Positions 45,657-48,903 of a DNA stretch of 64,000 bases are shown piece after piece. Source of the stretch: Bacteroidales bacterium (GTDB taxonomy: Bacteria; Bacteroidota; Bacteroidia; Bacteroidales; Paludibacteraceae); assembly GCA_015654525.1 (NCBI GenBank), contig JAATGT010000033.1:4082-68081 (forward strand), given 5' to 3'. A model generated the notes under the pieces. The model made no database searches and was not told the DNA's origin. It was given only the letters and a program-made list of their open reading frames with translations. Position 1 is the first letter of the stretch. Each line of letters opens with the position of its first letter. Both the position numbers and the translations under genes were made by a program.

Positions 45657-45693
45657 AGAAACAGACCAATCCTATAAGAATTGGTCTGTTTCT
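45657..45693. terminator. Stem-loop/terminator downstream of the DUF6261-like gene
   Basis: AGAAACAGACCAAT...ATTGGTCTGTTTCT, a perfect 14-bp inverted repeat. Confidence 0.75.
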
Positions 45694-45707: not shown

Positions 45708-46448
45708 TTAATTTTTCTTTTCTTCTTCGTCCGGTTTGTCCTTCGACTTCGATATCAATGCATGGGTTTTTATTCGCAGCTCATTCATATTGGTAAATAG
45801 TTCCAACGTTTCTTCGGTAGGCATCAGGTTGACTGTTTCCTCTATTACCGAGCAACAGCTGATGTAACTTTCACTCGCAGCGGGGCGCAAATCCGTTCCC
45901 GAACTGCCACGGCGTTCGCCGATTTCGGCAATACGAGCCAGATAATTCGACGATAAAGAAGTATTATTCGTTTTTAGTTCGCCCATCGGAGTGTTTAGCC
46001 CCAGTAATGTTCCTTTTGTAACGATGGTTGCGTCAGCTTCATATTTTTCTATCATTTCGGACGTATCTTTTATCTGATTGCCCAGTGGACGATCGGATAA
46101 ATCCCAATAAGGTTTATAAAAGTAATTGAGATCGGTGGCGGCGGCTTTACGCTCTGCAATTCGTGATTTCATTTCGAAAGTAACTGTACGTTTTACTTCG
46201 GACATCAGACTATTGTTTTGGATGCGCCCGACATTGATTGATGGCGTGTAGGGGCTTTCGCGCAGGCGGTTAATCTGGGTGATAAATGGTCTGGATTTGG
46301 TTTCCATCGAGTCGAGTGCCAGTTTTACCAGTTCGGAAACTTTACTTTTTACGGGTTCGCCTACGTTAAGTGTCCATTCAAATAAGTTGGCTGCATCATC
46401 ATTTTGTACGCGAGCGATGTTTAGCGAGAAAAATTTTAATTTTTTCAT
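45708..46448 (-). CDS. DUF6261-like alpha-helical protein
   Basis: 246 aa, no signal peptide. Pattern R..N, S.YT..I, AA..L, LGL....EL...N......Y..R and a charged tail recalls DUF6261 (recognised by eye). Confidence 0.65.
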   Translation of the reverse strand: MKKLKFFSLNIARVQNDDAANLFEWTLNVGEPVKSKVSELVKLALDSMETKSRPFITQINRLRESPYTPSINVGRIQNNSLMSEVKRTVTFEMKSRIAERKAAATDLNYFYKPYWDLSDRPLGNQIKDTSEMIEKYEADATIVTKGTLLGLNTPMGELKTNNTSLSSNYLARIAEIGERRGSSGTDLRPAASESYISCCSVIEETVNLMPTEETLELFTNMNELRIKTHALISKSKDKPDEEEKKN

Positions 46449-46512
46449 GTTTTGTTGTTTTTAATTTGTTTGTGTATTAATTATTTGGTTTTAAACCTAA
46501 TGAAGTTTCCTT

Positions 46513-46734
46513 AAATCTTAAATACTGAGTATATTTTACCTCCCGAATACAAAAAATGAAATCTACCGGGTATATTTAACCACCACACAGCCAAAAATAA
46601 AATCTACCCAGTGTTTTTAACTATTATGCTTGCTGAAATAAAATCTACCCGGTATATTTTTACTAACAAGTATCGAAATCAAAATTTACTCAGTACATTT
46701 TGCAAATTGCTTGGCAAAATCAAAATCTACCCGA
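46513..46734. repeat. Six-unit tandem array, exact 41-bp period, with a dyad core
   Basis: Core TAC at 46523, 46564, 46605, 46646, 46687, 46728. Consensus AAATnAAATCTAC-N3-GTATATTT plus about 14-16 variable nt. Confidence 0.9.
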
Positions 46735-46881
46735 TCTTTATTTTATTAGTATTAGAACTATCTTATTTTAGTTCGTATTTAATCTAAAAATGACAATAAG
46801 TACATTTAAACCTAAATTATTTAGTGTTGCTGCTATTTGTTTGTTTTGTATTGAATATATGCTATAGCTGACAATTACGAT

Positions 46882-46949
46882 GCGAATATAAAAATTGTTT
46901 TTTTTTATTGCAGGTCAAATCGTAAAAATAAAGGGTCAAATCGTAAAAA
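46882..46949 (-). promoter_or_regulatory. Putative promoter of the DUF6261-like gene: TATATTCG -7-like box and a 16-bp direct repeat
   Basis: GGTCAAATCGTAAAAA at 46913 and 46934 (21-bp period), just upstream of a near-consensus -7 box at 46883-46890. Confidence 0.55.
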
Positions 46950-47014: not shown

Positions 47015-47175
47015 GAGGCTGTCTCAAAAGTCTTTTTGGAACGCAAATGACGCAAAATGCGCAAATTAATGCAATCTTATTAAATTGAAATTCAACAAAT
47101 AACATTCTACTTTACAAATCTTATTTGCGAAAATTTGTGTTGTTTGCGTTATTTGCGTGCTTTTGATACAACCCC
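47015..47175. mobile_element. MITE-like non-autonomous element (161 bp)
   Basis: Terminal IRs GAGGCTGTCTCAAAAG / CTTTTGATACAACCCC (13/16); internal IR ACGCAAATGACGCAAA / TTTGCGTTATTTGCGT; no credible ORF. Confidence 0.65.
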
Positions 47176-47454: not shown

Positions 47455-48903
47455 ATGAAACAAAACAAATTTAGGGTATCCCTGCTTTTTACGGCAGCTT
47501 TTGTATTAATCTTTGCTACGGCCTGCCATACGGCCCAAAAGGTGAGTAAACCATCCGCCGACGATCAGTTTGTCGCCGGTCCTCCGCCGGATGGAACACC
47601 TTCCGGTCCTCCGCCCAATGGTATGCCTCCGGGTCCTCCTCCGGGCGGTAAAAAACCCAATGGAATGCCTCCCGGCGGTGGAATGGGGCAAAAATTTGAT
47701 GTGAGCACCATTCTGGCTACTCTTTTGGTGAAAGAAGGAACGCAAAGTAAGAGCAACGAAACGATTACGGCTGCCAATACCAACCAATCGGCTGTGGTCA
47801 CTTTTGGCAATGCAGTGCTGATGCTCGACCGGAACATAATTTCGACCACCGGACGGTCATCGTCGTCGGACAACAGCAGTTTTCAGGGTTTAAATGCCAT
47901 TGTGCTGAGTCGCGATCAAAGTAAAATTAATATGTCAGGCAATAAACTCACATCGAGTGGGGCAGGAGCCAATGTCGTGTTTGCTTATGGCAAAAGCTCG
48001 ATTTCATCGGAACATGACGTGATAAACTGTACAGGGCCTTATGCGCATGGCTTGATGGCCAGCGGAGGTGGAACTATTGTAGCTTCGGATGTAAACGTTC
48101 ATACCGAAGGAGCCAACTCGGGAGCCGTAGCGACTGATCGTGGTAGCGGTATTATTACGGTGAATAGGGGAAAAATATCAACTACGGGGATGGATTCACC
48201 TGCGCTGTATTCTACGGGTAAAATCACCGTGTCGGATGCCGAGCTAAGTGCTACCGGAGCCGAAATGGCCGTGATCGAAGGGTCTAATTCCATCGCGTTG
48301 AAGCGTTCCAATATGTCGTCTACCAAGCCCGGTAAATGGGGTGTGATGATTTACCAGAGCTTTTCGGGCGATGCCGAAGGGGTAGACGGAAACTTCAGTA
48401 TGGAAGATGGATCATTGTCGTATACCGATGCCCGGGGACCGTTGTTTTTTGTGACCAACTCGGTGGCTAATATTCATCTGAAAAATGTGGAGGTAACAGC
48501 TCCCTCGGGCATACTGCTAAAAGCAACGGCCGGTAGATGGGGGCACAAAGGCAGTAATGGTGGAAAAGCAAATCTTACCGTCGAATCGCAAACATTAAAT
48601 GGTAGTCTGGTGGCCGATAGCCTGAGTACTATTTCGCTTTCGCTGCTCGGAAACTCCGTTTTCACCGGAAGTATTAATGCCGATTGTCAGGCACACAAGG
48701 CATCGCTCAACCTGGACGGAACAAGTAGCTGGGCACTTACTGCCGATTCGTATGTCAATGTTATAAATGCCGACATTTCGGGCGATGCGGTGATGAATAT
48801 TATTGGCAATGGGCATACGGTGTATTACAAACAGGCAGAAAACAAACGACTGGACGGTAAGACCTACACATTGAAACAAGGCGGAACACTGAAGCCGGAG
48901 TAA
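47455..48903 (+). CDS. Pro-rich lipoprotein with predicted beta-helix (pectin-lyase/autotransporter-like) domain
   Basis: Lipobox ATAC, GPPP repeats, Gly/Ser/Thr-rich beta repeats (ATDRGSG, LYSTG, VIEGSN, MIYQSFSGD); -7 box TACATTTG at 47352-47359. Confidence 0.7.
   Translation: MKQNKFRVSLLFTAAFVLIFATACHTAQKVSKPSADDQFVAGPPPDGTPSGPPPNGMPPGPPPGGKKPNGMPPGGGMGQKFDVSTILATLLVKEGTQSKSNETITAANTNQSAVVTFGNAVLMLDRNIISTTGRSSSSDNSSFQGLNAIVLSRDQSKINMSGNKLTSSGAGANVVFAYGKSSISSEHDVINCTGPYAHGLMASGGGTIVASDVNVHTEGANSGAVATDRGSGIITVNRGKISTTGMDSPALYSTGKITVSDAELSATGAEMAVIEGSNSIALKRSNMSSTKPGKWGVMIYQSFSGDAEGVDGNFSMEDGSLSYTDARGPLFFVTNSVANIHLKNVEVTAPSGILLKATAGRWGHKGSNGGKANLTVESQTLNGSLVADSLSTISLSLLGNSVFTGSINADCQAHKASLNLDGTSSWALTADSYVNVINADISGDAVMNIIGNGHTVYYKQAENKRLDGKTYTLKQGGTLKPE

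Follow-up and report, generated by a model that had tools for sequence, protein, structure and literature searches.

What reads the array of palindromes that stands in front of a DUF6261 gene in a Bacteroidales genome, and is it read in DNA or in RNA? The question arises from a 64,000-nucleotide stretch of contig JAATGT010000033.1 (assembly GCA_015654525.1, a member of the Paludibacteraceae), hereafter the window, in which a gene of the DUF6261 family is preceded by six units of exactly 41 bp. The answer that we prefer, with slightly less than even confidence, is that the array is a phased DNA operator, with the adjacent DUF6261 protein as its proposed reader and autoregulation as its most likely purpose. 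The two features at the center of the question are:

45708 to 46448, minus strand: DUF6261 gene, 246 amino acids, Pfam PF19775
46513 to 46758, no strand assigned: array of six 41-bp units, read in a 41-nt register

Architecture of the array

The DUF6261-like call, first made from the letters alone, is borne out by Pfam, whose profile scores 51.6 bits on residues 80–222 (E 1.3e-13) where 27 bits are required for membership. The array sits 65–310 bp upstream of this gene. Its units start at 46513, 46554, 46595, 46636, 46677, and 46718, with zero drift from the 41-bp spacing. Each unit has a conserved part of ~25 nt with a near-palindrome of ~19 bp, AAATCTAC-N3-GTATATTT, which on the gene-sense strand reads AAATATAC-N3-GTAGATTT and in its perfect form AAATATACC-N-GGTATATTT. 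Dyads 1–3 are TTAAATAC-TGA-GTATATTT, AAATCTAC-CGG-GTATATTT, and AAATCTAC-CCA-GTGTTTTT, and dyads 4–6 are AAATCTAC-CCG-GTATATTT, AAATTTAC-TCA-GTACATTT, and AAATCTAC-CCG-ATCTTTAT. After each dyad comes a spacer of 14–17 nt (~16 nt), unrelated between units and unique in both the array and the genome. The gene-proximal dyad is centered 79 bp before the ATG. Direct reading and printing in the 41-nt register thereby confirmed the description given by the sequence-only reading, namely six units with a drift-free 41-bp period, degenerate outer units, and unique spacers.

A degenerate 20-mer matched seven times in the 64-kb window, for which 0.18 matches were expected; all seven lie inside the array, and none of 100 shuffles gave as many. 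A repeat search of the window also recovered the 41/82/41 spacing. Tandem Repeats Finder, run on the window, did not report the array because only ~25 of the 41 positions are conserved; register printing and lag autocorrelation do show it. The window array conserves the dyad and the spacing and not the sequence between dyads; most sister arrays in the family conserve their units in full, spacers as much as repeats.

Units of this kind, resembling a 25-nt repeat plus a 16-nt unique spacer and varying between strains in their inner members, might suggest a repeat-spacer array guiding an effector, in the manner of a CRISPR array. We rejected this explanation as almost certainly wrong. The criteria used for CRISPR arrays were repeats of 23–55 nt and spacers of ~21–72 nt; the conserved part of the window units falls in the former range, but their spacers are too short, and we know of no CRISPR spacer as short as 16 nt. 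No cas or cas-like genes were found among the neighbors, and an Rfam search returned nothing above noise. Spacer targets sought in the organism's own genome came down to chance one-mismatch matches, the two-unit dyad motif had no match among viral contigs, and the region upstream of the array had none among plasmids. The conserved spacers of the sister arrays likewise count against a guide function.

Private arrays across the DUF6261 family

We surveyed the whole genome (361 contigs, 4.16 Mb), which contains 22 DUF6261 matches, 21 of them with enough upstream DNA to be testable. In the 800 bp before the start codon, the strongest autocorrelation lag was 41 or 42 bp, or double that, for 19–20 of the 21 paralogues. 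A stricter, genome-wide detector placed a 41- or 42-bp array facing the start codon in 18 of 21, at distances of 12–203 bp. Each paralogue's array has a different palindrome at the same period, examples being TCGTACTAGTACGA (contig C10), TTCTCAGTACTGAGAA, TTGCGTAA-N-TTACGCAA, CGCCC-C-GGGCG, and AAATGCA-N4-TGCATTT. Beyond this genome, 19 metagenomic homologues of the window protein had enough upstream sequence for the test, and every one showed a 41-, 42-, or 83-bp array. Among 25 DUF6261 genes taken from 17 further genomes, within the same genus or order, 18 had arrays. Control genes, drawn from this array-rich genome, had an array in 48 of 1,342 cases (3.6%).

Nearly every DUF6261 gene has a private 41–42-bp palindrome array, apparently an undescribed rule: literature searches found no description of it, and DUF6261 was mentioned incidentally only. 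The window locus fits this design (period of 41–43 bp, one palindrome per unit, facing the start within ~250 bp). Because each gene is paired with a private array, gene and array most likely form a matched protein/binding-site pair. The association is very strong, and of the possibilities raised from the sequence alone, a near-four-turn phased array of binding sites with the adjacent protein as its partner is the best supported. The family itself is large and unevenly spread. A profile built from 33 members matched 7,590 cluster representatives (50% identity) at E ≤ 0.001 and 5,412 at E ≤ 1e-10, and copy number across 41 related genomes ranged from 0 to 22, the present genome being the maximum.

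Two further observations concern individual family loci. At C125:1644-2306, a DUF6261 gene broken by an in-frame TAA keeps a seven-unit 41-bp array upstream. On five Prolixibacteraceae contigs (L031, L032, L038, L043, and L044), we saw composite arrays in which 41-bp runs with different palindromes abut, runs of TGTACTGAGTACA adjoining runs of GTGGAGA-N-TCTCCAC or of TCATTAAATGA; on the side facing away from the gene, a conserved flank of ~110 nt recurs at several loci per genome.

Conservation of the palindrome among orthologues

The same dyad, polarity, and period occur in the orthologous loci L033 (97% protein identity over the available part), L081, L082, and L077. In strains at 93–97% protein identity, AAATATAC-N3-GTAGATTT stands in the same phase, with the last dyad centered 79 bp before the ATG in three of four, while inner units have been reshuffled and units gained and lost. 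At 54–58% identity, TAAATAC-TGA-GTAGATTT alternates with AATCTAC-TGCG-GTAGA. A Flavobacterium orthologue at 46% identity carries AAATATAC-TGA-GTAGAT seven times with a period of 41 and the same orientation to the gene, and two orthologues at 50–54% identity have AAATCTGC-AGC-GCAGATTT, in which both half-sites have changed symmetrically. Below ~45% identity, the dyads are unrelated. We also found arrays of AATGTAC-N3-GTACATT in Prolixibacteraceae but rejected them as orthologous, as the adjoining proteins belong to another DUF6261 subfamily.

Across all pairs of 58 gene-plus-array loci, those at 50–65% protein identity had exact words of at least 11 nt common to their arrays in 50% of cases. 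In the flanks, such words were common to 4% of these pairs over the 80 nt ahead of the ATG and to 9% over the 150 nt past the array, against a background of 2%, so the palindromes are conserved beyond neutral DNA. Since orthologues keep the dyad though the flanking DNA can no longer be aligned, these comparisons indicate purifying selection on the dyads, whose divergence keeps pace with that of the protein.

Such turnover of units between strains with 93–97% identical proteins could also reflect a selfish or neutral minisatellite, similar to a miniature transposable element with inverted repeats (MITE), spread and homogenized by recombination and lacking a dedicated function. Arrays of the same sequence do occur at unrelated loci, and a precedent exists in Porphyromonas gingivalis, where MITE464/PgRS, present in 10–20 copies per genome, contains 41-nt tandem direct repeats and is described as a MITE that has IS5-like terminal inverted repeats and repetitive flanks (PMC4596501). 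The likeness to PgRS covers the 41-nt tandem unit, the Bacteroidales host, and a similar range of copy number. It ends at the borders: no convincing terminal inverted repeats were found around the window array, and although an 11-bp direct repeat flanks it (46490–46500 and 46805–46815), we rejected this as a target-site duplication because it is absent from the orthologous locus L033. A minisatellite also fits poorly with a dyad that is conserved between orders when spacers and flanks are not, with half-sites that change symmetrically, and with a position and polarity fixed relative to one gene family. We consider this explanation quite improbable.

DNA or RNA

The array might instead work at the RNA level. 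It would then be transcribed as a 5ʹ leader whose hairpins are bound or cut by the DUF6261 protein, either for translational autoregulation or as a pair resembling type III toxin-antitoxin systems, with the repeat RNA neutralizing the protein. The placement of promoters relative to the array bears on this, and as the −7 consensus we used TAnnTTTG of Bacteroidetes. The relevant stretches of the window are:

46449 to 46512, minus strand: 64 bp between the array and the ATG, with only a weak −7-like box, TAGGTTTA
46592 to 46599, minus strand: exact TAnnTTTG match, TATTTTTG, in the spacer between units 2 and 3
46852 to 46890, minus strand: candidate distal promoter region with imperfect −7-like boxes TATATTCA and TATATTCG

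The weak box runs from 46499 down to 46492, 51 nt before the ATG. In the distal region, which is conserved in close relatives (L033), TATATTCA (46859–46852) and TATATTCG (46890–46883) stand 127 and 158 bp before the first dyad center, the latter being a one-mismatch match to the consensus and the candidate promoter picked out from the sequence. The exact match within the array stands 151 nt before the ATG and may represent either an internal promoter or a chance occurrence.

For ordinary genes of this genome, −7 boxes number 3.5–4.0 per kb over the last 100 nt ahead of the start, compared with ~0.7 per kb further out. At DUF6261 loci, the density between array and ATG is 1.13 per kb, with a box there in only 6 of 58 loci, all of one subfamily, and exact boxes reach 2.66 per kb upstream of the array, occurring in 32 of 58 loci. 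In nine loci, among them relatives of the window protein at 40–54% identity, the exact box lies 119–125 bp (~three periods) before the first clear dyad. Given this enrichment on the upstream side of the arrays, about one in two family members probably carries its array within a long leader. The earlier proposal of a long leader at the window locus is supported to this extent by the family, but the window itself has only imperfect boxes in the corresponding place.

These box positions favor an RNA-level module, and so do the order of promoter, repeats, and gene, which resembles toxIN, and the combination of many paralogues, patchy distribution (0–22 copies in 41 genomes), and module swapping, as seen in toxin-antitoxin or selfish loci. 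A fixed unit length is equally compatible with a protein-RNA ruler. In the type III systems toxIN, cptIN, and tenpIN, near-identical repeats are followed by a terminator and then by a toxin gene of the ToxN/AbiQ fold. The DUF6261 loci share with them a tandem array of fixed units directly upstream of one gene, cognate pairing, many divergent copies, and patchiness. They differ in that window units have only 25 of 41 nt in common, with variable spacers of ~16 nt, and in that a search for hairpin or terminator-like sites found none in 46449–46512. No ToxN-like fold, nuclease fold, or nuclease motif was found in the DUF6261 protein, nor any PADLOC or PHROG match, though a missing fold match proves nothing by itself.

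Several results argue for DNA. On the gene-sense strand, palindrome mismatches comprise 48 G.T and 53 A.C, with no G-U bias on either strand, and so the dyads lack the wobble tolerance expected of RNA stems. Many family dyads are perfect palindromes with a center of 0–1 nt. A conserved dyad and spacing without a conserved spacer is the signature of phased sites. Finally, in one subfamily (six genes from four genomes, 42–70% identical and with different dyads), the array lies upstream of the sole canonical TAnnTTTG, at −49 to −52, and the distance from dyad center to box, modulo 41, is 32–38 in all six genes. With the box downstream and its register fixed, the array of this subfamily would lie outside the transcript and in register with the promoter. 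Together, the missing G-U bias, the 0–1-nt centers, the unconserved spacers, and the pre-promoter arrays of this subfamily favor action on DNA rather than on RNA. Folding of the leader RNA (z −3.3) gave long-range pairing between units and not a row of hairpins; this is uninformative, because such pairing is expected of any palindrome array.

An RNA-level module must also account for the gene-less copy of the window array described below, which lies between convergent 3ʹ ends and after a terminator. We judge such a module unlikely. Processing of the leader into repeat-spacer RNAs, the other possibility first raised for the array, is disfavored by the same missing G-U bias and pre-promoter arrays, by sister units that are conserved throughout, and by the lack of spacer targets.

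Gene-less arrays and the wider array population

The window dyad occurs at one other place in the genome, a six-unit 41-bp array at C154:19577-19822 (L064:1578-1823). Its polarity and its variant end unit match those of the window array, but it has no DUF6261 gene, lying between the 3ʹ ends of a convergent amino-acid kinase gene (after its terminator) and the lrgAB operon. The motif is therefore not scattered through the genome as an unrelated repeat family would be, since this array is its sole other occurrence. A search for the window motif in 40 related genomes gave single chance matches only, all inside coding genes. At least six other DUF6261-linked arrays also have sequence-related gene-less arrays elsewhere, making at least seven paralogues in all.

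These belong to a larger population. The whole genome holds 157 periodic arrays, most of them intergenic and almost all with a palindromic core, and the basic periods are 21 bp (74 arrays), 41 bp (26), and 42 bp (25), others being rare. No DUF6261 gene accompanies about 33 of the 41/42-bp arrays or any of the 74 with a 21-bp period. The latter recur upstream of a CarboxypepD_reg family of ~300 amino acids (nine genes) and an fn3 family of ~205 amino acids (eight genes), and 5–6 of the 13 LytTR genes adjoin an array. LytTR regulators bind direct repeats ~21 bp apart. Arrays spaced at two or four helical turns are thus favored throughout this genome, and the DUF6261 link is the strongest expression of that preference, not the sole one.

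This breadth supports the view that the arrays are minisatellites of a generic kind, regulatory or architectural, which other host factors such as LytTR-type regulators or nucleoid proteins would read, DUF6261 being a non-binder that merely belongs to the class of genes most often found behind them; the DUF6261 fold, which shows no sign of DNA binding, points the same way. But some 20 palindromes would require some 20 matching regulators, and there are only 13 LytTR genes. The pairing of palindrome with DUF6261 subfamily is, moreover, one-to-one across orders, which suggests the DUF6261 product as the diversified partner. We regard a reader of this other kind as unlikely, about on a par with the RNA-level module.

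A separate observation concerns the array before the C283 DUF6261 gene (C283:1107-1385), which is near-identical to one at C259:24843-25186, 97 bp upstream of a gene with a LytTR domain. The likeness may reflect membership of one regulon or duplication of a control region.

The N-terminal head and its palindrome

The start of the protein is the candidate for the part that would read the palindrome. We tested a rule linking head to dyad on seven loci of the C43 subfamily fetched for the purpose. Heads of the form FAL[ST]R went with CGTAC..GTACG in five of six loci and with CGTAG..CTACG in the sixth. The single FSLVR head among the test loci had CATCC..GGATG, as at the paralogue C173, and FSL[VT]R pairs with CATCC..GGATG. 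In an unrelated subfamily, the head xSR[VT]TEVN accompanies TGTAC-N3-GTACA in three lineages with 45–52% protein identity between them, namely Prolixibacteraceae and metagenome-assembled genomes of an unclassified Bacteroidetes and of Melioribacteraceae. Among heads more generally, His tends to occur with GCG/CGC-rich dyads and Arg with GTA/TAC dyads. An echo or complement of the dyad sought in the first 75 nt of the coding sequence showed no excess over mismatched controls (mean 4.9 versus 5.1).

The protein is predicted to be soluble, with no signal peptide and an isoelectric point of 6.7. An AlphaFold2 model built from 33 sequences is all-helical, with nine helices, a pLDDT of 90, and the first ten residues as coil, in agreement with the soluble helical protein described at the outset. 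Foldseek with this model gave no match at E ≤ 0.001. A wide structural search and a sequence search of solved structures both returned generic helical bundles only, the best Z of 10.3 in the former being within noise for helical proteins and nothing in the latter rising above noise; likenesses to the McpS and TorS sensor domains, PME inhibitor, Avd, Rop, and YicC were set aside as noise of this kind. Searches of PHROGs, PADLOC, and NCBIfam gave nothing useful. A homodimer prediction scored 0.27 (mark 0.42), which counts neither for nor against. As modeled, the fold gives no argument for DNA binding and is compatible with it.

A proposed phased operator read by its own gene product

We therefore return to the phased operator. 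In the mechanism that we propose, each 41-bp unit, about four helical turns, would present one near-palindrome on the same face of the helix. These sites would be bound by an oligomer of the DUF6261 protein, presumably one dimer per site, whose first ~13 residues may carry the site specificity. The resulting cooperative nucleoprotein array would control transcription of the protein's own gene. With a promoter upstream of the array it would act as a roadblock, and with a promoter downstream by occlusion. This genome would then contain ~20 orthogonal protein-array pairs, each paralogue with its private palindrome, and arrays of the same palindrome elsewhere, such as C154:19577-19822, would be further targets of the same protein.

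A number of points weigh against this proposal. Paralogues C43 and C173 (L045 and L046) are 93% identical, yet their dyads are CGTAC-GT-GTACG and ATCC-N-GGAT. Their amino-acid differences number four in the first 15 codons versus ~1 per 15 codons elsewhere, synonymous differences are concentrated in the same codons, and the upstream DNA is at random identity; the L092/L094 pair (CCACC versus CCGCC) shows the same swap of a 5ʹ block. Because differences, synonymous ones included, cluster in the first 15 codons and the upstream DNA cannot be aligned, we take array, leader, and first ~13 codons to be exchanged between paralogues as one block. Physical linkage alone can then create an association between head and dyad, though block exchange also fits a functional cassette of reading head plus site. 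Counted by lineage, a residue-to-base code is marginal (~p 0.06, from a rough hand count). No DNA-binding fold (ribbon-helix-helix or helix-turn-helix) was recognized in the protein, the model being a generic helical bundle, and most DUF6261 paralogues are acidic to neutral (isoelectric points 5.3–6.9). For about half of the genes in the family, the best promoter box precedes the array, which leaves room for a role at the RNA level. Lastly, there are ~100 further 21/41/42-bp palindrome arrays with no nearby DUF6261 gene, and since some stand before other gene families, another, more general factor could read such arrays.

Known systems offer partial parallels. The sopC centromere of the F plasmid, bound by SopB, is built of 12 direct 43-bp repeats that each contain an inverted repeat of 16 bp. 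Like sopC, the window array consists of head-to-tail units of about four turns with one palindrome each, beside the gene of the presumed binder, and keeps its spacing more strictly than the sequence between its sites. It differs in being chromosomal, in belonging to a module present ~20 times per genome with private palindromes, and in adjoining an unrelated, all-helical protein. The iteron- or centromere-like function mentioned with the phased array in the sequence-only reading is unlikely: the module is present 22 times on the chromosome, the neighbors examined include no partition (ParA/ParB-type) or Rep genes, and plasmid and phage sets gave no match to the window DNA or the DUF6261 protein. 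An iteron-type origin was rejected, there being no Rep-like neighbor, two copies of the window array, and more than 150 arrays in the genome; a segregation function is implausible.

Omega of pSM19035, ParG/parH, and KfrA of RA3 are plasmid autoregulators with operator or centromere arrays, whose sites are 7–10-bp repeats spaced by one or two turns. These resemble the window locus in having repeated short sites upstream of the binder's own gene, with cooperative binding and autoregulation in the plasmid cases, and specificity may in both lie in a short N-terminal segment. The DUF6261 protein differs from them as a 245-amino-acid helical bundle with no recognized ribbon-helix-helix or helix-turn-helix, and its binding is putative.

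Should the protein indeed read its own array, the DUF6261 proteins would make up a very large family, new to biology, that binds nucleic acids sequence-specifically with naturally diversified, orthogonal specificities and a modular cassette of head plus site. This would bear on gene control in Bacteroidota and provide a source of orthogonal regulator-operator pairs. The full generalization is more doubtful than the proposal for the window locus itself: we advance only tentatively the idea that DUF6261 is an undescribed DNA-binding family of ~7,600 clusters, in which a head of ~13 residues reads a private palindrome, the cassette is exchanged as a block, and ~20 orthogonal pairs coexist, some with gene-less targets. 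Even otherwise, the genome-wide preference for 21/41/42-bp palindrome arrays (157 in 4.2 Mb) implies that some structural rule follows the helical repeat of DNA. As a test case the window is clean: one protein is paired with six sites of its own, and the same dyad recurs in a single gene-less array, likewise of six sites.

Surroundings of the gene and array

One further feature was noted downstream of the gene:

45657 to 45693, minus strand: terminator-like hairpin of 17 pairs, 15 nt past the DUF6261 stop codon

Because this hairpin follows the stop codon, the DUF6261 gene looks monocistronic. The neighbors of the gene and array are a TonB-dependent receptor, a PepSY_TM protein, and an open reading frame of 482 amino acids (47455–48903) with no Pfam family. 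Between the array and the next gene, at 46913–46949, there are two exact copies of GGTCAAATCGTAAAAA, 21 bp apart. Upstream of the 482-amino-acid frame, at 47041–47158, clusters of 9-bp repeats of the ACGCAAATG and TTATTTGCG types occur on both strands and are possibly operator sites of another regulator. Inside this frame, at 47576–47644, is a 27-bp tandem repeat of 2.6 copies that would encode a proline-rich repeat.

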